DNA of 64,000 nucleotides, taken from positions 32,001 through 96,000 of the forward strand of contig CAVUWV010000013.1 of the NCBI GenBank assembly GCA_963745075.1. Reading direction: 5' to 3'. Both the position numbers and the translations under genes were made by a program. The DNA is from Candidatus Hydrogenedentota bacterium. Lineage in GTDB: Bacteria; Hydrogenedentota; Hydrogenedentia; Hydrogenedentales; SLHB01. Below are positions 24,042-36,545 of the stretch, piece by piece; the stretch's first letter is position 1, and every line of letters begins with the position of its first letter. The notes beneath the pieces are model-generated. The model saw only the letters and a list, made by a program, of their open reading frames with translations. It ran no database searches and was not told where the DNA came from.

Positions 24042-24737
24042 CTATTCGGTCGGAGCGGGAGGAGGCGGAGGTACGTCTACTTGGGCCCGGGATCCCTGCG
24101 GCCCGCGATCGCCATCGAACTGACGAGGACCATGCGGTCCGCGGCCGTCGTCATACCCGCGAGGACTACGGGGTCCGCGCGGACCGCCCATTCCTTCGGG
24201 GCCGTCCGGCCGGGGCGGACGATGCTGGGCGTGGAACTGATCCCATTCCGGACGGGTAATCGATCCGTCGCCATCGGCGTCGATGTCTTCAAAGGGCGGC
24301 GGTCCCATGGGGCGGCCCGGACCCATGCCCTCGCGACGACCTTGCGGCCCTTGCCGTCCGGGCTGCCACTGGCCATCCTGGGCTCGTTTTCCATGGGGAC
24401 CCGTCATGTCGCACTCGCCGGGCCGATGACCGTCACGCGCGCCGTATGGTCCACGCGGTCCCTGTGGGCCTTGGAATTGACCGCGCGGGGGTGGGGGACC
24501 TTGGCGATCATCATAGCCGCGAGGCCCTTGCGGTCCGCGAAACTGATCCCGAGGCGGCGGCGTAGCTTGAAACTGGTCCGCATCCGGCGGCGGTGGCGGA
24601 GGCCCGGGATCGACCGCCTGCGAATCGTTGGGTGGCGGCTGCGGCGGTTGTGCCTGCGCCGCGACGGTCAGCAGGCACACCAAGGCCAATGCCGTTATCC
24701 CGGTGAGCAGGTGGTTCAGCATTCGTGTCGTTGTCAT
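24042..24737 (-). CDS. exported Pro/Gly-rich protein with one EF-hand
   Basis: GGAGGG SD before MTTTRML; signal peptide ending AQA; DADGDGSITRPE EF-hand loop; GPQGPRG repeats. Confidence 0.75.
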   Translation of the reverse strand: MTTTRMLNHLLTGITALALVCLLTVAAQAQPPQPPPNDSQAVDPGPPPPPPDADQFQATPPPRDQFRGPQGPRGYDDRQGPPPPRGQFQGPQGPRGPYGARDGHRPGECDMTGPHGKRAQDGQWQPGRQGPQGRREGMGPGRPMGPPPFEDIDADGDGSITRPEWDQFHAQHRPPRPDGPEGMGGPRGPRSPRGYDDGRGPHGPRQFDGDRGPQGSRAQVDVPPPPPAPTE

Positions 24738-24894
24738 AAAACTACCCTCCTGAATCCCGTTAGGGTTCGTTGACCTTTTCTCAACTCCGACCTGATTGTG
24801 CCCGGCGACATTAACGGGACCCCGGAGGATTTCATGACAAAACCTTAATCTTCCGTATTCGGAACAACGTCCACATCGAGGGTATACTTTGCCA

Positions 24895-25569
24895 ATGAAA
24901 GTGTTGGTCGTGGAAGACGAGAAGCAGATTGCGGGCTTCGTTAAAAAGGGGCTCGAGGAGCAGGGTTTCACTGTGGACGTCTGCGACAATGGGAACGACG
25001 GGTATACTTTCGCGACAACCCAATCCTACGACGCCATCGTGCTGGACATTATGCTGCCCGGCCGTGACGGGCTCAGCATCCTGAAGAATCTTCGCAAACG
25101 GAAAAACGCGGTCCCGGTCATCCTGCTCACTGCGCGGAGCGAACTGGATGAACGTCTCGAAGGGCTTAATCTGGGCGCGGATGACTACCTCACCAAGCCT
25201 TTCTTTGTGGAGGAACTGATCGCGCGCATCCGCGCGGTGGTCCGGCGCGCCTCCGGCGAACAGCTCAGCATTCTGCAGATCGAGGATCTCACGATCAACG
25301 TAATCACGCGTGAGGTTAAGCGCGGAGATCGTGGCATTTCCCTGACGGCACGCGAATTCAGCCTGTTGGAGTATTTGACGCGGTCACCCGGCCGGGTGTA
25401 CACCCGCACGCAGATTCTCGAACACGTCTGGGGGTACGACTTCGATCCGAATACCAATCTAATCGACGTGCACATCCAACGCCTGCGGAAAAAGCTCGAC
25501 GCCGGAAGCGCATCGCCCCTCATTGAAACCGTGCGTGGTGTCGGGTACCGCATCAAACGGACGGAATAA
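24895..25569 (+). CDS. OmpR-family response regulator (CusR/CopR-like)
   Basis: VEDE, LDIMLPG, DDYLTKPF, winged helix ETVRGVGY. Confidence 0.95.
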   Translation: MKVLVVEDEKQIAGFVKKGLEEQGFTVDVCDNGNDGYTFATTQSYDAIVLDIMLPGRDGLSILKNLRKRKNAVPVILLTARSELDERLEGLNLGADDYLTKPFFVEELIARIRAVVRRASGEQLSILQIEDLTINVITREVKRGDRGISLTAREFSLLEYLTRSPGRVYTRTQILEHVWGYDFDPNTNLIDVHIQRLRKKLDAGSASPLIETVRGVGYRIKRTE

Positions 25570-25573
25570 CGTC

Positions 25574-27229
25574 ATGATTCGGATTCGGTCTTTCCGGTTG
25601 CGTATCACGCTTCTGTCGGTTCTGCTTTCCGGCGTCGTGCTGATCGCTTTTGGGGCGTGGAGCTGGTCCCTGATCCGACGAATCAGCCTGGACCGGATCG
25701 ACGACGAAATCCGCGGTATCGGACACCTCCACCTTTCCGAACATCGGCCTCCGGAACACTGGAACACCGTCGGGGAGTCTCTCGCATCCATTCGGTTCGG
25801 AGACCAACAAAAGGGCGAGCCGTTTATCCTGCTCGTGAAGAATCGGCGTAACGAAACGCTTCATGTGTCCCCGGGATGGCCCGCGGACCTTCCTGCGTCT
25901 GAGTTTCCTGCACCGACAGGCGATCTGCCGCCGCCGCTGGAAGGTCCACCCGACGGGCCACCGCGCGCCGGAGCACCCCTAGAGCCCCGGCGGGGTCCTC
26001 CACCCGGCAATCGCGGGCCGGGTTTTCGACCTAACCCGATGGACGGCGAGGGACAACCCATACGCCCGCCTGGGGGTTTTCAAGGCCCTCCAGGGCCGGA
26101 AGGTCCGCCCAATGGGAGGCGACCCGAAGACCAAGGCCCGCGTCGCGGACCCGGATTTCGCGGCGGTCCGCCGCCACCGATTCCGTTGCCGGTTAATCCT
26201 CCGGTAATCGTAACGCGTATTGCGGACGGCAAGGAGTGGCGCATCGGGATCATGGGCAACCCCGAAGTGACCATGGTACTCGGGATCAATCTTGACCGGT
26301 ACAACGCGGAGATGGGCCGTGTCAGAACCGCCTTCCTCCTGGCGTTGCCGGCCGCGCTTTTACTCATTGCCGCCGGCGGCTGGTTTCTGGCGCAACGGGC
26401 GCTGCGGCCGGTGGCGCGTCTCACGCGAACCGCGGAGGGAATCACCGCGCGCGGATTGGATCAACGCATCCCACCGTCGGACGACGACGTCGAGTTCGTC
26501 CGACTGATCGGCGTGTTCAACGAAATGCTGGATCGATTGGAGAAAAGCTTTCAACAAGCGGTGCGATTCAGCGCGGATGCTGCGCACGAACTCAAAACGC
26601 CCCTGACGATTTTGCAGGGGGAATTGGAACAGGCGCTTCAGACCTGCCCACCCGGTTCACCGCAACAGCAATCCTACAATAAGCTTTTGGAAGAAGTGCA
26701 GCGGCTGAAGAGCATTATGCGTAAGCTCTTACTGCTATCGCTGGCGGATTCGGGACAACTCAAGTTGACGTTTGAACCGCTCGACCTGAGTTCGATCCTC
26801 GAATCCGTCTACGAAGACACCCAGATTCTCGCTCCCCAGCTCTCCGTACAGCGCGATATTGCCTCCGGCGTGTGGGTCAATGCCGACCGGGATTTGCTGC
26901 GTCAGGTGGTGCAGAACTTGACCGGAAACGCCATCAAATACAACCGGAAGGGCGGCACGATCCACTTCCGCCTGCGTTCAGACGGACAGGCCGTGCGCCT
27001 GTCTATCGCCAATACGGGCAAAGGAATCCCCGCGACGGAACGCGAGCGTATTTTCGATCGGTTCTATCGCGCCGACCCCTCGCGCAATCGCAAGGTGGAA
27101 GGGGTTGGCCTCGGTCTGAGTCTGGCAAGGGAAATCGCGCGAGCCCACCACGGCGATCTGCAACTGGACGACACGCGGGACGGCATCGTTGCATTCACGC
27201 TAACCCTGCCGGTATTCAACCAAACGTAG
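25574..27229 (+). CDS. sensor histidine kinase (HAMP-HisKA-HATPase) with a Pro-rich periplasmic insert
   Basis: Two TM helices, DAAHELKTPL, NAIKYN, FDRFYR, GVGLGLS. Confidence 0.95.
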   Translation: MIRIRSFRLRITLLSVLLSGVVLIAFGAWSWSLIRRISLDRIDDEIRGIGHLHLSEHRPPEHWNTVGESLASIRFGDQQKGEPFILLVKNRRNETLHVSPGWPADLPASEFPAPTGDLPPPLEGPPDGPPRAGAPLEPRRGPPPGNRGPGFRPNPMDGEGQPIRPPGGFQGPPGPEGPPNGRRPEDQGPRRGPGFRGGPPPPIPLPVNPPVIVTRIADGKEWRIGIMGNPEVTMVLGINLDRYNAEMGRVRTAFLLALPAALLLIAAGGWFLAQRALRPVARLTRTAEGITARGLDQRIPPSDDDVEFVRLIGVFNEMLDRLEKSFQQAVRFSADAAHELKTPLTILQGELEQALQTCPPGSPQQQSYNKLLEEVQRLKSIMRKLLLLSLADSGQLKLTFEPLDLSSILESVYEDTQILAPQLSVQRDIASGVWVNADRDLLRQVVQNLTGNAIKYNRKGGTIHFRLRSDGQAVRLSIANTGKGIPATERERIFDRFYRADPSRNRKVEGVGLGLSLAREIARAHHGDLQLDDTRDGIVAFTLTLPVFNQT

Positions 27230-27665
27230 TCCGCATTCCTCCCAGCGCGGCGCAGCCGCAACCAAATCCGAAATCCGAAGCACGAAATTCGAAACAAGTC
27301 CCAATGTTCCAAATGAGGAATGACCAAAACGGTTCTGCCGAGCCGAGACCCGCAAAACAACTTTGCATGGACAGGTATTCACATGCATGCGTATTCCGGC
27401 GATTCCGTCACATGCAGCCCCGGATGGGGCGACCCGAGCCTAGTCACGCCGCAGGCGTGATGGAGCGAGGTACGAGCGGAACCCTGGGTCAGACGAGCAC
27501 CCTCTCCACACAGCCCCCGAATGGGGGCGTAGGAACTCGATTGCGTACCGGGAACTATCATCTGACCATCGAACATGGCTACCAAGCATTTGCGAAGGAT
27601 CTTCACAACGTTGACGGATAGGGACATCGTCCGCATTTCTTCCAGCGCGGCGCAGCCGCAACCAA
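27229..27665. repeat. pair of 37-bp direct repeats (27229-27265 and 27629-27665) enclosing REP-like palindromes
   Basis: GTCCGCATT(C/T)CT(C/T)CCAGCGCGGCGCAGCCGCAACCAA occurs twice, 400 bp apart; internal GCCCCGGATGGGGC and GCCCCCGAATGGGGGC hairpins. Confidence 0.75.
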
Positions 27666-27900
27666 GACTTTTCTCATCCTCATCCACCGATTGCAGGAAG
27701 ATAATTTGCCCGCAGAAGGTCGCGGACGGACGGAAGAGATTTTGGTCCATAGTTATCACAGCCATCCGGAATCCGCGATCGAAAATCCCATGCGCGTCAT
27801 CGTGAGACGGGGACTACGCCGCGGGCGTGGTTGTTGGTGGCGAGAACAGTCGGGCTGAGTTGTAACGTAATTATTCTCGAAATCGGGATCGATCCCGATT

Positions 27901-27929
27901 ACGAGCACGAGCACGAGTACGAGCACGAC
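27901..27929. repeat. ACGAGC/ACGAGT hexamer tandem repeat
   Basis: ACGAGC ACGAGC ACGAGT ACGAGC ACGAC; a related array lies at 36470-36493. Confidence 0.75.
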
Positions 27930-28400
27930 AAGGGCAAAGCGCCGCTATTGGTACAAAACGACTTAGGGGAGCCTGTTCTTAGGAAAAGTTTGCAAAGGCT
28001 AGCGCGTGAAAATGCAGAATAACTTCAACGTTTTTGACGAATAGTGTCACCGCCCGAAAGGCGTTGTCGTGTGGATCACGCCATGGCGTGATGAGAAATG
28101 CTTTCGAGAAAAGTACTCGTTTTCGCACTTCGTACTCGGATTGTCGAGTAGGAAACAATGCGGTTTAGCCATCTCCTAGTGCCCTTTGGGGATAGCCTTT
28201 TGGAATTTGCACCTATCTCCGCATATTTGCGGGAGAGCACATTACTAACTCGTTGTGCAGTCGCAGGTAGACGATTCGAGAACTTGAGGTTGATCTAGTC
28301 AACCTTGCCGTAGCTTTCGGCAGAGTCTCTAGGGCCGATTCAAAACTGAGGACCGCGGAGGCGTTGTCGACCCCTGCTGGAGGAAGGCACTAAAGAAACT

Positions 28401-28523
28401 ATTTAATTGACAGATTTAATTGACAGATTGGCCTTATTCGCGTAAAAAGGAAAGCGGGGGTATAATGCGAGAACGTCATTTGATAAATGGGCTATCTCCT
28501 CTCTTGAAGCGGGGGCATATAAT
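28401..28523 (+). promoter_or_regulatory. upstream region of the Ubl operon with duplicated promoter-like motifs
   Basis: ATTTAATTGACAG x2 in perfect tandem (28401-28426); AAGCGGGGG(CA)TATAAT x2 (28452-28466 and 28507-28523). Confidence 0.45.
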
Positions 28524-28592
28524 AAATCCATTCAAACCATATTTATGTCTAAGCCGTTATGTAAATATATATATATAGGAGCTAAACCCGCA

Positions 28593-28883
28593 ATGCCCGA
28601 AGAAAACATGAACGTCGAGGTTTGGGACGCAACTGGAAATAAGAAGATTACGGCAAGTCTTCCTGCCCACGAGCCTGTCAACAGGATTATGGTCGTTCTT
28701 GTGGACAAAATGAATCTGCCTCGTCACAGTCCCGATGGCCAGTTACTGAGTTACAAGTTCAACCATAAGGCTAGTGGTCGCCAACTCCTCGATGACGAGA
28801 CCCTGTCGCATGCCGGTGTACAGCCTAATGACATTCTGCGAATCCAACCCGAAATTACTGCTGGGGGATTCTGTAAGCAATGA
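28593..28883 (+). CDS. ubiquitin-like protein (YukD/EsaB-like beta-grasp) ending ITAGG-FCKQ
   Basis: AGGAG SD before ATG 28593; ubiquitin-like LLDDETLSHAGVQPNDILRI motif; di-Gly near the C-terminus; stop overlaps the E1 start (ATGA). Confidence 0.85.
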   Translation: MPEENMNVEVWDATGNKKITASLPAHEPVNRIMVVLVDKMNLPRHSPDGQLLSYKFNHKASGRQLLDDETLSHAGVQPNDILRIQPEITAGGFCKQ

Positions 28884-30064
28884 AGCATCTAGACTTCGGG
28901 TCTGATGAGACCGGGACGGGAAGATTTAGTCGTTTCGAACTGATCAATTGGTGGGACCAGCAACACTTGGAGCAAGCTCACGTGCTTGTTGTGGGAGCCG
29001 GGGCTCTCGGTAACGAGATCATCAAGAACTTATGCTTGTTAGGAGTCGGGAATATTTTTGTGGCGGACTTCGACATAGTCGAGAATTCCAATTTGTCCCG
29101 GTCCGTGCTCTTTCGGGAGGCCGACAATGGGAAACCCAAAGCCGTCGTGGCCTGCGAGCGGGCAAAAGGTATTTACCCAAAGGTCAGAGTCCAACCATTC
29201 TCTGGCGACGTTGTGTATGACTTGGGGCTTGGCGTCTATCTTTGGGCCAACGTCATTCTGGGCGGGCTCGATAATCGGGAGGCCCGAGTATCGATGAATG
29301 GTGGTGCAGCTTTCGCCAGGAAACATTGGATTGACGGCGCAATTGAAGTATTGGACGGTGTCATGCGCGTGTTCTATCCCCAAGAAGGAGCGTGCTATGA
29401 GTGTACGATGAACGAAATCGACTGGAAAATTGTCGAGAGTAGACGTTCATGTGCTCTGCTCACTAGAGATCAAATGATGTTGGGGCACGTACCTACAACT
29501 CCGACAACGTCGAGTATCATCGCGGCTCTTCAAGTTCAGGAGGCGGTTAAGTTACTCCATGGTATTCCCGTCATGGCTGGCGAGGGTATCCGTTACACTG
29601 GAATGCAAAACGAGTTCACGCAAGTGCGGTATCCGCGCAAGCCGGAGTGCTATGGGCATGATACGTACCAGGCACTTCGCATGACGGGCCGAAGCACAAC
29701 AGATACAACCGTTCAGGATATCATTAATCTTGCAAGGTGTGAGCTCGGTGGGGACGCGGTAGTTGGATTGAGTAGAGATATCGTGTGTGCACTCGACTGT
29801 CCAATATGCCATAAACGACATAGTATCTTTACTTCGTTGGGTAAGGTTAGAGAAGAAGACGCACTGTGCGAAGAGTGCGGAGAGCTATGTGTCCCAGATA
29901 CATTGACAACCCTCGGGCTGAATGATGACTTAGATGACAAAACTCTAGCGCAGATTGGCGTGCCTCCTTTCGACGTATTAACAGCTCGCAATGACGAAAG
30001 GTCTGTTTCCTATCTATTCGACGGCGACGCGGCGCTAGTGCTGGGTGGATTGGAGGTGAACTGA
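28880..30064 (+). CDS. E1-like ubiquitin-activating enzyme (ThiF/MoeB fold plus C-terminal Zn ribbon)
   Basis: VVGAGALGNE, DFDIVENSNLSR, GKPKA, LDNREAR, CYEC...CYGH Zn site, RRSCALL putative catalytic Cys, CPIC/CEEC. Confidence 0.92.
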   Translation: MKHLDFGSDETGTGRFSRFELINWWDQQHLEQAHVLVVGAGALGNEIIKNLCLLGVGNIFVADFDIVENSNLSRSVLFREADNGKPKAVVACERAKGIYPKVRVQPFSGDVVYDLGLGVYLWANVILGGLDNREARVSMNGGAAFARKHWIDGAIEVLDGVMRVFYPQEGACYECTMNEIDWKIVESRRSCALLTRDQMMLGHVPTTPTTSSIIAALQVQEAVKLLHGIPVMAGEGIRYTGMQNEFTQVRYPRKPECYGHDTYQALRMTGRSTTDTTVQDIINLARCELGGDAVVGLSRDIVCALDCPICHKRHSIFTSLGKVREEDALCEECGELCVPDTLTTLGLNDDLDDKTLAQIGVPPFDVLTARNDERSVSYLFDGDAALVLGGLEVN

Positions 30065-31256
30065 TGTCGAAATCTGATTCTGGAGACAAACCTTCAAGCA
30101 AGCTTGACTATATGGATACGGATACCACGAGATTGCAAGAGCAACCTTTTCCTGTGTCGATTCGTACCACGTTCCGAGTCTATTTCGAGGAGAACGCGTA
30201 TAGGGCCATGATGGAGCACGCGACAACGACCACGGAAGTCGAACTCGGAGGAGTGCTTGTCGGTCGCGTACTTCGTGACGCGGTTGGCCCCTACCTGCGA
30301 ATCGTAGGGAGCATTCCAGCGGAGGGCGCACAAATCGGGATGTACCGAATCACATTCACGCACGAAGCGTGGAATCACATCAATCAAGTTCGAGATGAAA
30401 ATTTTCCAGAAGACACTCTCGTCGGTTGGTATCACACCCACCCGGGCTTCGGTATCTTTCTGTCAGAAATGGATAGTTTCATCCAGGAGAATTTCTTTAA
30501 TCAGCCATTCCAAATTGCGGTGGTTATTGACACAAAGTCTGAGGAGGAAGGCTGTTTTATCTGGGAGTACGGAAGACCAACCCCTGCAAGCTCCTATTGG
30601 GCGGGGTCCAGAGAAGTTACATTGGCTGGAGATGGCGCGGGCAGGCCTGCCGTACGCATACCACCGACTAAGTTTGAAAATGTCGCAAATGGGAGCGAGG
30701 GTAGGCGCAAGTCGAATCCTATAATCTCCATCTATATAGCTACGGTAGTACTAGTATTATTGGTGATAGCGGGCACGACATGGAGTCTCCACGCTAAACT
30801 ATTGAGCCAACAAGAAACCCTAGAATCGGTGCAAAGTCACCTGAGAGAGGAATCGAGACGGCAGCGGCAGATAACCGCGCTACCTTAGCAAAAGAAGTCT
30901 CTACTGTGAATCAGTCTCTGGAGAGTGTCGACACGACGATCGCCTCGAATTGGAACGCTACGAAAGACCGATTTCGACAACTAGAACAACACCTAAATGA
31001 AGTGAACAAAGACGTAGCAGCTAGCCGGAGCATGTTAGATGACAGGGTATCGGTGCTGAAGTCCAAAATGGACCAAGATAAGGCCGATATCCTACAACAG
31101 CAAAGTCGAATGATGGAGTCCATGGACTCTTGGTTAACCCGAGCCACCAGTTGGCAAACTGGCTGGCCGTCACCGGATTGGGAATGGCAACTGTGGCCGT
31201 TCTCGCCTCTCCTCGCTCCAATGCCTGACACGCCTCCGAGTACGGAAACCGAATGA
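30064..31256 (+). CDS. JAB/MPN (Mov34) isopeptidase plus TM helix and coiled coil, frameshifted near 30843
   Basis: EVELGGVLVG and WYHTHPGFGIFLSEMD JAMM motif; TM IISIYIATVVLVLLVIAG; the frame of the 30906 ORF is open back to 30843 (ERGIETAAADNRATLAKEV) and continues the helix. Confidence 0.85.
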
Positions 31257-31290
31257 GAGTTGACTGGGAATCAAATACGGGGGAAGCGCA

Positions 31291-32355
31291 ATGGTAGATA
31301 TCCACGTCTCATCGGATGAATTAAACAGTCCGCGTGTGGAAGAAATCATCGCCATTGAAAGTGCAGGCAAAAATCAAGACAGTGTTGCATTTCTTGAGGA
31401 CGTTGAAAGGCCGTTTCACGAAAATCCGAGCTTCTACTATAGCGTAGCGTCTGGGATCATGGCCTTTATCGCATGGATTATCGTGGAACCACTTATCAAC
31501 GAGGGACAGTATAGGAGTCCGTTCGTCGGCTTATTGTTCTTTATGGTTCCCGCAGCCTTGATCGGACTTGCTCTGGGCATGGTTTACGGGATATCCAACC
31601 GAAATCCGTCCCAAGCGGCGTACTGCGGTGGAGTAGGATTCGGCTTGGGAATTCTACTCGCTATTCCAACAAGTCTCCTCGGTGGGTTTGTTTACGCAGA
31701 TAGGTTCAGCGTTTGTGTTTTCTTTAATCGATACGCCAATCGCAAGCATTCGCGATTTTCCTTCCAGTAGCCTTCGTGATTCAGATGTGTACTCGATCTT
31801 GTGCCTGGGCAATCGTGGCAGCCGCAGCTAGCCTACCACTTGAAATCGCTTCTGAGAAGCAAGAAACTGGCGGGAGTAGGTCTCATGGGCGGCATTGTTG
31901 GAGGAGCTGCTGGAGGACTCTTATTTCGATCCGGTGTCTTTTCTTTTTATGCCAAATGCCACAGAAGCGTGGCTAAGCCGTATGGTCGGGTTAAATGCAG
32001 TCGGCCTATTGGCTGGCTTATTCATCGGCTACATCGAGAACTTGGCGCGGGTGGCGTGGCTGCGAGATTGATGCGCGGGCCTTTAGCCGGCAAACAGTTT
32101 AATCTTTACAAAAGCCCGATGATTATTGGCTCTACTCCACGAGCAGACATATATCTCTTCAAAGACCCTAGTATTTCACCCGAACACGCCTCAATTACTA
32201 TCACTGGATCCAAATTCTTGTTGACCGACATGAACAGTCAATCCGGAGTATTCGTAAATGGTAGGCGTATTACTAAATGCATTCTCCAAAAGGGAGACGT
32301 TGTGACCTTAGGTCAAACGGTGCTCAAGTACGACGATCGAGAAAAGAGGGGGTAA
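31291..32355 (+). CDS. polytopic membrane protein with C-terminal FHA domain (about 5 small indels)
   Basis: Gly-rich TM helices stitched across frames (GGLLF|DPV...AWLSRMVG...IENLARVAWL|RLMRGPLAGKQF); FHA motifs IGS, SPEHA, DMNSQSGVFVNG. Confidence 0.8.
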
Positions 32356-32362
32356 TACGGCT

Positions 32363-33099
32363 TTGCCAGCGATTAAGTTCCGGTGTCCGTCGTGTGGGAA
32401 GACGATGCGAGCACCAATCGAAAGGGCTGGTTCCAAGGGTAAGTGTCCTGACTGTCTTTCCCCTATAGTTGTTCCAAGGCCAGTGTTCCAAGCAGTAGAA
32501 CGTCCTTTTGCACAGCCGAGTTCTTCTGCCCCCGGGAACCGGTTTCTAATCGGACTCTGCCTGAGCGAATGCGTGCGAATCGTACCATCGCGGGAGAATA
32601 TGTCCTCAATGCCACACCGAGATCGAGTTTAGGGGATCCCATCGTCAATTGCAGGGACTGCGACGTTAGCTCCCACGAACATTGTTATGAACGGGTTGGT
32701 AGCTGTCCGAACGTCGAATGTCGCTCGCAATCAAATCCGCCACCTACACCCGCAAGCGGAACGCAGCAAATAGCACAAACAGCACCGGAACTTTCGGGAC
32801 CCACAATATCCTGCCCATATTGCGGTGAAGCCATAATGGCCACCGCGAAGAAATGCAAATATTGTCAGGAATGGCTCGACGAATCTCTCCGAAAAATTAA
32901 TGAGCGGATGGGTAAGAACGAGGACGACAACATGACGGCGGTTAACGTCCTGTTGTGCGTCTTCTGCTCAGGTATCGGCTGCGTTATGGGATTGATTTAC
33001 GCAATACAAGGCAAAAAGAAGGGGTGGAAGATGATGGTGTTAAGTATTGTCATTTCCTTCCTCTTCAGTCTGCTGAGAGCTATTATGGAGGAGTCGTAG
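32363..33099 (+). CDS. Zn ribbon plus prokaryotic RING-like finger, double Zn ribbon and 2 TM (about 3 indels)
   Basis: CPSC..CPDC; stitched CPQCHTEIE|GDPIVNCRDCDVSSHEHCYERVGSCPNVEC; CPYC..CKYC; hydrophobic C-terminus. Confidence 0.75.
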
Positions 33100-33102
33100 C
33101 CA

Positions 33103-33719
33103 ATGGCAGCGCCTAGTAATAAACCACACAGAGCTGGTCGGCGCGAGGCAGGACAAACCTGCCTTATCTGTCACGTACCGATCATTATTGGCGAATGGCT
33201 CACCTCATGTTCATCATGCAAGCTCCACTACCACCTCGAATGCTGGAATGAGAACGGTGGCTGCGCTCAGTACGGTTGCGACCAGGCTCCCGATGCAGAG
33301 CAATATGAAACGAATCAATTCCAGTCAAACGTGTGGGCCGAGGACAAGACGTGCCCAACTGCCATCAACGCATCAAGGCCGTGGCACTGAAATGCAGGTT
33401 TTGTGGGACGCTATTTGAAACGAGAGACTATGTCTCACAAGACGATTTCGCTAAACGTGAATATCGAGACCGAGAATATACGTTTGCACGAAATGCTCTC
33501 GTCCTTTTGTTTCTTCTCTCGATTACCGGATGTCTCAGCCCTGTCGCATTGATATTGCACCTCATCCTACGCTACGGCGGCCGTCTGGGTAGCAAGCTCG
33601 AGTTTAACCGATTTCCAGATGAACTCAAGGCCCTGAACCTGATAGGGCTCGTAATGAGTGGCGGACTTGTGGCTTTGGGCTTTCTTGCCTTATTGCTTCA
33701 AGCCTCACAGAGTATCTAA
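33103..33719 (+). CDS. prokaryotic RING finger plus Zn ribbon and TM helices (frameshift near 33355)
   Basis: CLIC-x12-CSSC-x4-HLEC-x6-CAQYGC, then CPNCHQRIKAVALKCRFCG and hydrophobic segments in the next frame. Confidence 0.8.
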
Positions 33720-33767
33720 AGCGGAGATGTTGAAGTTACATGGTGGCTTCGGAAGCAAGAGCTGAAC

Positions 33768-35014
33768 ATGAAAGGTGAGACCTGCCCAGCATGTGGTCGA
33801 TGCTTTGAGGTCGGTGAAGTTGGTTTCCACTTGCGAAGAGTGCCTCGCTGTTTATCATGTGCTGTGTTGGGAATCCGCGGGGGGGTGTGTCAACTGTTTC
33901 TCGGCCTGCTTCAAGCCCAGAGCACACTATAAAGTCCGAACCGGACCTTGTGATCTATGGATACGAAGCGCGTATGGCAAAACCACCTCCCCCTGGTATG
34001 CCCGTCCGACCAGCGGAAGAAGTCGCGGCGGAATTCGCGCCAAGGTCTTCGGTGGCGGGTAAGTGGCTGACCGGGGTAGCTGTATTCGCAGCGGTCCTGT
34101 CCGTAATGGCAATTCCAGGAGCCATTAGTGAGAACCTTCCCATGGTATTCGTGGGCGTTGTTTCGGCGGTTGTCGGAATCACGGTTGGAATCGCGGCTGC
34201 AATTCTCGCATGGACACAACATAGGTTTTGCCCTCTGTCCGTTGGTTCGGTGGTGATAAGTTGCTCAGTAATACTTGTGACAGGATTCGTGAGTGATCAT
34301 GTGTCAAGGGAAGATTCCCTATACGGTACAGGTATCACGGAACTGGAAAACTCGCAACTAACCGAAGCGCAACTTGCGAATCTTCCTGCTCCAATCGCCA
34401 ATGCCTTGCGGGCAAATGTTCTTATAGTGCATAAACGTCTCACGGAGACGACTTACGGGTCCGGAACGATTACTCGTGTCGCAGAGGGAAAAGTCTATAT
34501 ACTGACAAACAGACATGTATTGGGGGACGGCCAAGTCACAATTCACTTCTACTCTGGACAGTCTACCCGTGGTGAGATCGTATGGTTGGCACCGGGAGAC
34601 ATTGATCTTGCGTTTGTTGTATGTCACGCCGAGACAAACGTCGATTTTCCGGGCATTACAGTTCTTGATGGTCAAATGAATCCTGGCAATGGCTCCTTTG
34701 CCGTCGGCAATCCGATGCATCTGCCATGGACTTACACGAATGGCGCAATTTCTTCTGTTAGGTCTAGACAATACGGCGAACGGACGCTGTACGTGTACCA
34801 AACGCAGACTCCGATAAATCCTGGAAGCAGCGGTGGCGGGCTATATTCGGAAGACGGCGTATTGATCGGAGTCAATACCTGGACAGAAGATAAAGCTGTT
34901 TCTGAAGGTATTAACTTCAGCATTACAACAATGAGTCTTCTCGATTTGCTGCGTGAGGAGGAACTTCATCGTTTTATACGTGAAATCGCTACAATTGGCC
35001 AAGTAGAGGCATAA
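33768..35014 (+). CDS. prokaryotic RING finger plus 3 TM and trypsin-like (S1) serine protease (2-3 indels; start may be 33740)
   Basis: Stitched CPACGRCFEVGE|LVSTCEECLAVYHVLCWESAGGCVNC; catalytic triad TNRHV, DIDLA, NPGSSGG; no PDZ domain. Confidence 0.8.
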
Positions 35015-35050
35015 GGTGCTCGAACGAATAAGTGTGGAGATCTAGATCCT

Positions 35051-35934
35051 ATGAGCGTGCGTCTCAGACGGCTTACGTCAGATTATGAGAGAGTCCGAAC
35101 ACTATTTCAGGACAATCAACGGATTTGTTTAGTGGAAAAGACTGGGAAGCCGCCGGAGTACTACGTGTTTCAGTATCACGTGAGGAGTCTGCAGCAGGAC
35201 ATCGATTCAGGAACGTTACGGTGGGCCAACTCTTTTCGAGTTGAGATAAACTTACCAGGAACATACCCTCGCACATCTCCGCATTGCCGGGCGATTACAC
35301 CCGTGTTTCATCCGAATATCGCACCGCACTCCATCTGTATTGGCGACCATTGGGCCGCCGGTGAGTCCCTGGTAAACTTAATTGTTCGCATTGGCGAGAT
35401 GCTTGCCTATCAGTCGTACAACGTCAAAAGTCCTCTAAATGGAGATGCGGCACAATGGGCTGAAAAGAACAAGTCGCGTCTTCCGGTTGACCGTTTCGAC
35501 TTTTCCTCCTTACTTGCAAGAGGCGAAGTTTTGCGCGCCCACGAAGATCAGGTCAGCGGAGTATGCGCGAACTGCGGTCTCGAGGGGAGGGAGCTAAACT
35601 TCAGGTCTGCGTAAGTGGGCACACGACCTGCGAGGCTTGTCTGATACCCTGTGGACGATGTGGAAAACCAATGTGCATGGCCTGCGAGTTGATGAAATGC
35701 GATGTATGTGGTCAACCAACGTGCCCCCAATGCAGGGTGCGGTGCGCGATGTGCGGTAGCGTTGTATGCACTGATGACGCCACGCGGTGCAAAGTGTGCA
35801 AGGGGATTTATTGCCGTAATTGCTTGGTTAGGTGTTTCCGGTGCGGGTTTATCGTATGTATCAATCATATGAATAAGGTTAGGGACCCAGATGGCGAAAA
35901 GAAATTCGTTTGCAGTGTGTGCGGAAGCGATTGA
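35051..35934 (+). CDS. E2 ubiquitin-conjugating enzyme fused to Cys-rich Zn-binding repeats (frameshift near 35585)
   Basis: MSVRLRRL, YPRTSP, FHPNIAPHSICIGDHW (HPN plus catalytic Cys), SPLNGDAA; then CANC and five C-x2-C-x4-C-x2-(C/H/D) units. Confidence 0.88.
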
Positions 35935-35938
35935 CAAC

Positions 35939-36418
35939 GTGAGATTTGCCGACCCCGTACCGGGGGTGCGCAATCTGTCAAAGATTTTGCCGTTTACGTG
36001 GCAAGTCGAGCACAAAGCCTCGTCTCACTTAACTGCCATTATTCTGTTTGCATGTTTCGTTGGCTTTCCCTTCCTGTTGAATATTGAACAGCCCAACGGT
36101 ACGCAGGATAGTTGTGTGTCAATCGGTGGTCTGCAACTGCCCCGAATTTGCATGAGCCAAAGCTTGTTTGGAGTTCGGTGTCCAGGATGTGGTCTCACAC
36201 GGTCATTTGTCGCGCTAACTCACGGCGAATGGGCTGCCTCAATCCAACATCATCGACTAGGACCGGTGGTGTACCTGTACTTTGTCGCGCTGATCCTCTT
36301 TCATGCTTACGGTTTATTTGCACGTGCTCGGCCCTTGCCGCGGGGGCTGGTGTACGGTCACCAGATTGCCGCCTTAGTTCTAATTGGGGGGTTGTTCTTG
36401 ATTTGGGCGTTCCAGTAA
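35939..36418 (+). CDS. DUF2752-family membrane protein
   Basis: C..SQSLFGVRCPGCGLTRSF motif with flanking TM helices; start uncertain. Confidence 0.8.
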   Translation: MRFADPVPGVRNLSKILPFTWQVEHKASSHLTAIILFACFVGFPFLLNIEQPNGTQDSCVSIGGLQLPRICMSQSLFGVRCPGCGLTRSFVALTHGEWAASIQHHRLGPVVYLYFVALILFHAYGLFARARPLPRGLVYGHQIAALVLIGGLFLIWAFQ

Positions 36419-36545
36419 GGCGCATCAGAACACGTTGTTGGTCCGCGGTACGAAGACTCTAGGTATCGTCGAGTACGAGTACGAGACCGAGTAGGAAGTA
36501 CGATTAACAGGACCCGAAAAGAGTTAATTTGCTCTAGCGTTACGG

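Follow-up and report, generated by a model that had tools for sequence, protein, structure and literature searches.

A bacterial nine-gene operon encoding a candidate membrane-associated ubiquitin-like conjugation cascade

The window analyzed in this study is a stretch of 64,000 nucleotides from a Candidatus Hydrogenedentota bacterium (assembly GCA_963745075.1, contig CAVUWV010000013.1, positions 32,001 to 96,000). Between window positions 28593 and 36418, nine genes lie in the same direction (+ strand) and encode, in order, a ubiquitin-like protein (Ubl), an E1, a JAB peptidase with a transmembrane (TM) helix, a multi-TM protein with an FHA domain, three membrane proteins with C4HC3 zinc fingers, one of which is fused to an HtrA-like protease, an E2, and a DUF2752 protein. 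In our judgment, this operon was probably acquired horizontally and specifies a reversible Ubl conjugation cascade that would work at the cytoplasmic side of the inner membrane, with input from the periplasm.

Operon layout and conservation of the gene set

The genes are tightly packed, with an ATGA overlap between the Ubl and E1 genes (28880 to 28883) and a TGATG overlap between the E1 and JAB genes (30062 to 30066), and the operon block has a GC content of approximately 0.50, compared with approximately 0.59 in its surroundings. A preliminary description of this DNA had reported the packing and the AT-richer block, together with the catalytic motifs GAGALG, SNLSR, and RRSC of the E1, HPN-x6-C of the E2, and HTH-x10-D of the JAMM site; all of these are confirmed in the sequence, as are hydrophobic helices in six components (JAB, the TM-FHA protein, the three finger proteins, and DUF2752), the number for which it had reported TM helices. 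The profile search that it had proposed gave YukD (27.8 bits, cutoff 27), ThiF (166 bits), JAB (35 bits), FHA (64 bits), UQ_con (43 bits), Trypsin_2 (67 bits), and DUF2752 (62 bits) in Pfam, whereas the three window fragments reached 24.7, 31.9, and 23.3 bits against Prok-RING_1, and only one of them passed its cutoff of 29.1. In a locus from Candidatus Sumerlaeota (L005), which contains all nine genes unbroken and in identical order, two of the three fingers exceed this cutoff (33.1 and 35.8 bits). A sigma-70 scan upstream of the operon gave no site on the + strand.

The E1 belongs to a large family, with E ≤ 1e-40 for 7880 of 8000 scored candidates. A genome scan with a single E1 query returned nothing, and the loci were found by an alignment-based scan; the best 80 of 554 confirmed genome loci and the best 80 of 573 confirmed metagenome loci were used, and those that could be named are mostly from Planctomycetota. 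Among 161 non-window loci, 58 are long, i.e., they extend at least 8 kb downstream and at least 1 kb upstream. The preliminary description had made its proposal depend on the genes occurring together in other genomes, and they do so: Ubl, JAB, and FHA are each present in 57 of the 58 long loci, a finger in 55, E2 in 53, the protease in 42, and DUF2752 in 34. All five core partners (Ubl, JAB, FHA, finger, and E2) stand beside the E1 in 52/58, and every long locus with an E2 (53/53) also carries a finger gene. A compact variant is found in L056, L082, L113, L122, L130, L138, and L151, in which the FHA and finger-TM parts form one protein and the E2 carries a Zn ribbon; most of these FHA-finger-TM proteins also contain a Zn ribbon, and neither protease nor DUF2752 matches were found at these loci.

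Conjugation enzymes and Ubl maturation

The intact E1 (28880 to 30064) is a protein of 394 amino acids with a single adenylation (ThiF) domain, a zinc site (Cys172, Cys175, Cys257, and His260), the predicted catalytic residue Cys191, and a predicted C-terminal ubiquitin-fold domain (UFD) into which a C4 zinc ribbon is inserted. The zinc ligands, Cys191, and the N-terminal arginine residues are invariant in 45 homologues, and the Cys motif is present in 154 of 162 open reading frames (ORFs). Models of the E1 have predicted local distance difference test (pLDDT) scores of 87 and 95. In the profile comparison, UBA7, UBA1, and UBA3 are the closest solved relatives, and the structural matches of the adenylation domain are led by MoeB (Z-score = 29.2) and UBA3 (Z-score = 28.0). 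The C-terminal 134 residues were folded alone with a pLDDT of 94.6, and their top seven structural matches are all UFDs of SUMO or NEDD8 E1s (Z-scores of 9.7 to 7.5; next unrelated match, 5.8), the best being that of a SUMO E1 (Z-score = 9.7, root mean square deviation = 3.0, 83 residues aligned); the top two Foldseek matches, which are weak (E = 0.03), are also UBA2 UFDs. These models suggest that the E1 ends in a UFD like those of the SUMO and NEDD8 E1s, which would be a further eukaryote-like feature. A partner or fused inactive adenylation domain was not found, with one genome match to the E1 at E ≤ 1e-30.

The E2 (35051 to 35934) is of the canonical type (HPN-x6-C, with Cys96 as the catalytic residue) and has a Cys-rich multi-zinc-finger tail; among the loci, the E2 carries variable zinc-finger or TPR extensions. 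Its best solved relatives are Rad6/Ubc13-type E2s. The motif HPN-x6-C is found in 74 of 85 ORFs, and His87, Pro88, Asn89, and Cys96 are invariant in 74 sequences, in which the YP and W loop motifs are also conserved; these loop surfaces are named for RING binding in the available part of PMC5654768. A second cysteine, Cys79 (35285 to 35287), lies upstream of the HPN motif and is at least 90% conserved in the 74 E2s. Complex prediction for the E2 and the second finger gave a score of 0.12 and a mark of 0.32 and is not used as evidence either way.

The adenylation domain could also be read differently, with the Ubl as a sulfur carrier like ThiS or MoaD and the E1 as a ThiF/MoeB-type adenylase for cofactor or amino acid synthesis. 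MoeB as the top structural match fits this explanation, but it is very unlikely in view of the canonical E2 with its invariant cysteine, the UFD on the E1, the absence of a rhodanese domain in the Pfam search and of a conserved biosynthetic neighbor among the flanking clusters, and the scores of the ThiF/MoeB equivalogs, all of which fall far below the cutoff.

The YukD-like Ubl precursor (28593 to 28883) had been described as a Gly-Gly Ubl; however, its Gly-Gly is followed by four residues, and the comparison of 145 Ubls corrects this assignment. The motif xEI[TV]AG is present in 145/145 sequences ([LI]QPEITAG in 120), and only the first Gly is invariant: 30 Ubls stop at this single Gly, 89 continue into a non-Gly tail, 25 have Gly-Gly and a tail, and 1 ends with Gly-Gly, i.e., a second Gly is found in only 26. 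Because an invariant motif is followed by unconserved tails, the mature end is most likely the single conserved Gly (xEITAG), exposed by the JAB peptidase; in the window, it would be the Gly of PEITAG, which is followed by a 5-residue tail. With such an end, the tryptic remnant of the Ubl is predicted to be 8 residues rather than diGly, and the diGly proteomics proposed earlier would miss the modifier and is unsuited to it.

The JAB/JAMM peptidase (30064 to 31256) is followed by one TM helix and a C-terminal coiled-coil-like region. The motif HxH-x7-S-x2-D is conserved in 141/146 JAB proteins, and one TM helix after the JAB domain was observed in 133/146. In Bil, a deubiquitinating enzyme (DUB) pre-processes the Ubl, according to the available part of 10.1101/2023.09.26.559546, and we propose the same step for the window JAB. 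At L050:9698-11152, L100:302-1795, L048:9164-9874, and L035:9510-9977, the Ubl shares a reading frame with either the E1 or a Zn-ribbon protein, an arrangement that would fit JAB-mediated release.

Membrane components and the proposed cascade

The first finger protein (32363 to 33099) contains a C4HC3 finger between two Zn ribbons, followed by a TM module, as judged by Pfam and by comparison with L005. The second (33103 to 33719), whose fragment passes the Prok-RING_1 cutoff, contains a finger, a Zn ribbon, and two TM helices, and the third (33760 to 35014) joins a finger and a TM segment to an HtrA/DegS-like serine protease. Bacterial Prok-RING_1 fingers carry TM helices. All eight finger ligands and a tryptophan are invariant in 74 sequences, while many Planctomycetota versions of the first finger gene have Zn ribbons only. 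In NCBIfam, the L005 finger-protease is matched best by DegP and DegS models, all below the cutoff, and among the triad motifs of 66 proteases the His is present in 63, the Asp in 57, and the Ser in 62. An excess of Lys and Arg before the last TM helix relative to the stretch after it was observed in 46 of 52 finger-protease fusions, so the protease is predicted to be periplasmic; the topology rests on this charge bias because crude TM counts disagree (two helices in 37 proteins and three in 15).

The TM-FHA protein (31291 to 32355) is a Gly-rich membrane protein with five or six TM helices and a C-terminal degenerate FHA domain, and its L005 homologue is intact (365 amino acids). The pattern was matched in 92 of 103 TM-FHA domains, and at what we take to be the canonical positions of the phosphothreonine (pThr) pocket, Arg is found in 1/92, Ser in 3/92, and Asn in 1/73. 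The FHA domain, having lost these residues, is probably a plain interaction module, and phospho-signaling through it is not supported. Ser/Thr kinase-like genes neighbor the operon in a cluster that comprises 8 loci (e.g., L014:7265-8842, L018:7245-8822, and L050:1-3159); those in L014 and L018 match a kinase-type PADLOC model, though the FHA of the operon looks phospho-independent. The DUF2752 membrane protein (35891 to 36418) is intact, has conserved cysteines, and is regarded as accessory. For the TM modules, only weak DUF4190 matches were obtained, in some homologues; a CD225/dispanin-like identity was rejected, with no such match in 25 segments at E ≤ 0.5. In the ESM Atlas, the TM region of the TM-FHA protein matched unnamed clusters (best score, 0.81), and the Zn-ribbon-TM module matched Zn-ribbon families only.

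In the cascade that we favor, whose chemistry, E3 activity, substrates, and purpose we infer from the parts, motifs, folds, and co-occurrence described here, the membrane-anchored JAB would remove the tail that follows xEITAG in the Ubl precursor. The E1, which is probably a homodimer, would adenylate the Ubl and form a thioester on Cys191, as expected from its family, and its UFD may recruit the E2, which would receive the Ubl on Cys96. The membrane C4HC3 fingers would serve as RING-type E3s that place the Ubl on inner-membrane proteins close by, from which the JAB would take it off again; plausible targets are the TM-FHA scaffold and the Zn-ribbon-TM proteins of the operon itself. Input from outside the cytoplasm could be provided by the periplasmic HtrA-like protease and the C-terminal region of the JAB, and the output, during envelope stress or attack, would be signaling or the remodeling of a membrane complex, which is more likely than proteasomal degradation. 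Degradation like that associated with the endoplasmic reticulum (ERAD), raised in the preliminary description, found no support, as no Pup ligase match was obtained in 5/5 hosts searched; the window genome (90% complete) contains one proteasome-fold gene of HslV size, which is presumably HslV.

Several points weigh against this cascade. The finger ligands are spaced as in PHD fingers (C-x2-C-x12-C-x2-C-x4-H-x2-C-x6-C-x4-C), and the finger profile matches RING-H2 (E = 5.9e-5) and the PHD finger (E = 6.4e-5) equally; E3 activity is suggested for the fingers by their context. Of the full E1-E2-E3-DUB cascade announced earlier, the complete Ubl/E1/E2/JAB/finger set, the membrane tethering, and the catalytic cysteines are supported, whereas the E3 activity of fingers with PHD-like spacing is putative. 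The protease and DUF2752 are dispensable, and the periplasmic input is therefore not universal. Moreover, the loci are the best E1 matches and are related, and the co-occurrence counts show conservation rather than independent events. Finally, frameshifts are approximately five times as dense in the operon (approximately 1.5 per kb) as in the rest of the assembly, checks of the four nearest flanking genes showed all of them to be intact, and the window copy may truly be decaying.

The PHD-like spacing and the equal PHD and RING matches would also suit fingers that are PHD-like or structural zinc modules rather than E3s, in which case the E2 with its Cys-rich tail would itself select the substrates, as happens in Bil, while the membrane proteins would be substrates or scaffolds. 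The exchange of the first finger for plain Zn ribbons in many loci and the variable extensions of the E2 point in the same direction, but the retention of at least one finger in nearly all long loci, the invariant Trp together with the conserved E2 loop motifs, and the Pfam assignment to Prok-RING_1 make this assignment unlikely.

In the eukaryotic MARCH/RING-CH E3s, a cytoplasmic C4HC3 finger is followed by TM helices. They provide a functional analogy, rather than a demonstrated homology, for the tagging of membrane proteins; the ligand spacing differs, and no MARCH-named entry is among the 60 matches listed for the finger profile. A more far-reaching form of the favored cascade, which we advance tentatively, is an E3-dependent membrane Ubl system like the MARCH and ERAD ligases, with an E1 bearing a eukaryote-type UFD. 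In such a system, the membrane-spanning part would link a periplasmic HtrA-like protease to a RING in the cytoplasm, and envelope damage or an invader would trigger single-Gly tagging of inner-membrane proteins. If true, no earlier bacterial E1-E2-E3 cascade would have been shown to depend on a RING E3 of its own, and the system would offer a living model of membrane ubiquitin signaling before eukaryotes.

Related systems, distribution, and state of the window copy

Burroughs, Iyer and Aravind reportedly predicted prokaryotic RING/E1/E2/JAB/Ubl operons (Prok-RING_1, PF14446) in 2011, and their paper and its supplements may already show the nine-gene layout. Related sporadic and uncharacterized operons in Actinobacteria, Planctomycetes, and Acidobacteria are stated in the available part of PMC4197634, in agreement with the earlier remark that such operons had been predicted, for example in Planctomycetes, and the accessible parts of PMC3417536 and PMC7159879 likewise give such systems as predictions. 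The features of the class predicted in 2011, as far as they appear in the available parts of PMC4197634 and PMC3417536 (Ubl, E1, E2, JAB, and Prok-RING_1 in one operon, sporadic occurrence, Planctomycetes), are all found for the window operon, which is a member of this class. In the open-access literature, outside which subscription papers largely lie, we found no experiments on bacterial operons of this type; the accessible parts of PMC8665760 and PMC8195603 contain nothing on this operon, and those of PMC11354881 and 10.1101/2024.11.21.623966 contain no experiment on this operon class. The conjugation systems characterized in bacteria lack a RING E3 (PMC11601596 and 10.1101/2023.09.26.559546, in part), and the RING-bearing operons are described as predicted and uncharacterized (PMC4197634, in part).

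The operon of Caldiarchaeum subterraneum, with Ub, E1-like, E2-like, small RING, and Rpn11 proteins, has been reconstituted and shares with the window operon a stand-alone E1 with a ubiquitin-like C-terminal domain, an HPN-type E2, a zinc finger with a conserved Trp, and a JAMM peptidase (PMC5654768, in part). Its finger is a small RING-H2 (C3H2C3), whereas the window fingers are C4HC3 and membrane bound; the window modifier is YukD-like with one conserved Gly, and the TM-FHA protein, the protease fusion, and DUF2752 are added. BilABCD also has separate Ubl, E1, E2, and JAB proteins and a Cys thioester relay, but BilD has IAD-AAD-CYS domains without a UFD, and Bil has no E3 (10.1101/2023.09.26.559546, in part); the window E1 consists of one adenylation domain and a UFD and is accompanied by finger proteins and six membrane proteins in all. 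The BilD model matches only 63 residues of the window E1 (E = 3e-7), and neither the E2 nor the Ubl has a PADLOC match at 1e-4. CBASS Cap2/Cap3 and Bub share the E1, E2, and JAB folds, but they contain E1-E2, Ubl-E2, or JAB-E1 fusions, which are absent here; CBASS conjugates CD-NTase, whereas no nucleotidyltransferase is among the nine window genes, and Bub uses Tyr/Ser oxyesters and DUF6527, whereas Cys191 and Cys96 are invariant here and none of the nine genes encodes DUF6527 (PMC11601596, in part). An identity as Bil, Bub, or type II CBASS was rejected on the separate E1 and E2, the UFD, the Cys residues, and the absence of CD-NTase and DUF6527.

The same chemistry might instead serve defense against phages or other invaders, with foreign entry or membrane insertion triggering the tagging of foreign proteins, as Bil tags virion proteins. 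A patchy and mobile spread agrees with this purpose: the E1 is present in 1/40 relatives of the host and in 29/301 Planctomycetota genomes (an even sample of the phylum that includes the center genome and one already known), and the window copy lies at a site that is empty in congeners. The one relative (G008, L003:7748-14276) belongs to the same family and has a reordered seven-gene set of protease, Ubl, E1, JAB, TM-FHA, one finger (a DUF4190-type protein), and E2-TPR, with a GC content of 0.57 compared with 0.63 in its flanks. In a quick tree, the window E1 pairs with the Sumerlaeota sequence of L005 (Shimodaira-Hasegawa-like approximate likelihood ratio test, 99), and the G008 copy stands apart on a long branch, which suggests that the two may have been acquired separately. 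Defense is the role of the characterized CBASS and Bil pathways, and the same role has been predicted for RING-bearing operons by the authors of one study (10.1101/2023.09.26.559546, in part).

Against a defensive purpose, only 5/148 nearest flanking ORFs (of 304 candidates at 73 loci) match PADLOC at 1e-10, all via generic kinase, ABC, HEAT-repeat, or candidate models, a count in which some ORFs may be miscalled and which has no matched background. In 39/47 long loci, the GC contents of operon and flanks lie within 0.03 of each other, which suggests long residence; no component has a strong PADLOC match or an NCBIfam match above the cutoff, no effector or toxin gene is conserved nearby, and the flanking genes form no conserved cluster above 10 loci. 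Because of these neighborhoods and the GC content, we favor envelope signaling or remodeling and consider defense rather unlikely, although patchiness and mobility keep it in play. The sensing of phage entry put forward in the preliminary description finds no defense-gene neighborhood to support it.

Frameshift-aware alignment to four intact homologues revealed 12 frameshifts and zero in-frame stops in the window copy, spread over six genes: one in JAB (near 30850), four in TM-FHA (near 31730, 31854, 31924, and 32067), three in the first finger gene (near 32538, 32595, and 32630), one in the second (near 33359), two in the finger-protease gene (near 33810 and 33890), and one in E2 (near 35585). 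Only the Ubl, E1, and DUF2752 genes are whole. Two further events in JAB relative to L005 compensate each other in a poorly conserved linker. The copy could be a genuine decaying pseudo-operon that was acquired and then inactivated in six genes, a possibility that concerns this copy and not the family. It would account for 12 frameshifts in 7.8 kb compared with approximately 37 in 135 kb elsewhere (approximately 0.27 per kb, 27/116 other genes relative to a congener, an approximate count that includes some miscalled ORFs, with 40 stops seen), for 7 frameshifts in four test genes compared with 10 calls in all for the same genes across 30 other loci, and for the foreign GC of the block. Of six other window genes checked, only one is affected.

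On the other hand, none of the 12 lesions is an in-frame stop, several lie in or beside homopolymer runs, the assembly is prone to frameshifts, and conserved-column deviations (15/279) do not exceed those of the intact L005 (18/279; median of 2% over 93 loci). Some stops would be expected as well if neutral decay had produced the 12 indels; the frameshifts are therefore most likely assembly errors, and decay of this copy is less likely. In a small share of the data from one sequencing run, read contigs matched five short operon stretches with 0 to 1 differences, and none of the pieces examined (8/11) spans a frameshift. Genome-wide, the apparent frameshifts in approximately a quarter of the tested genes of this assembly (G000) call for caution with split genes elsewhere in it. 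The frameshifted window copy is a poor template, whereas the family is a good experimental target: it is present in approximately a tenth of the Planctomycetota genomes searched, Lacipirellula limnantheis I41 (L051) is one of the named cultured strains that carry it, and it poses the testable question of whether a bacterium runs a ubiquitin-like cascade that depends on an E3, and whether it does so at a membrane.

In congeners, the two genes that flank the whole inserted block (27230 to 36545) occur without it. A histidine kinase gene and the gene downstream of the block are adjacent in G001, G002, G003, and G005, i.e., the site is empty in four of five congeners; in G004, the two genes are on different contigs. 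Because the flanking genes abut in these four genomes, approximately 9.3 kb appears to have been gained in the window genome or lost in the congeners. No unique target-site duplication was found at the block ends, and repeats near both ends resemble multicopy intergenic elements. The left part of the block (27230 to 28450) lacks a long ORF of its own and contains intergenic repeats; one piece of it (27251 to 27350) matches the genome at approximately 50 places, and a direct repeat of 42 nucleotides lies at 27224 and 27624. Low-complexity CGAGTACGAG-type repeats that are related to each other are located near both ends (27890 to 27933 and 36470 to 36495), and that at the left end has approximately 10 further matches elsewhere in the genome. 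Upstream of the block, at 24042 to 27229, a gene for a Pro/Gly-rich protein adjoins a response regulator and a Pro-rich sensor kinase, in a region that is conserved in the congeners.

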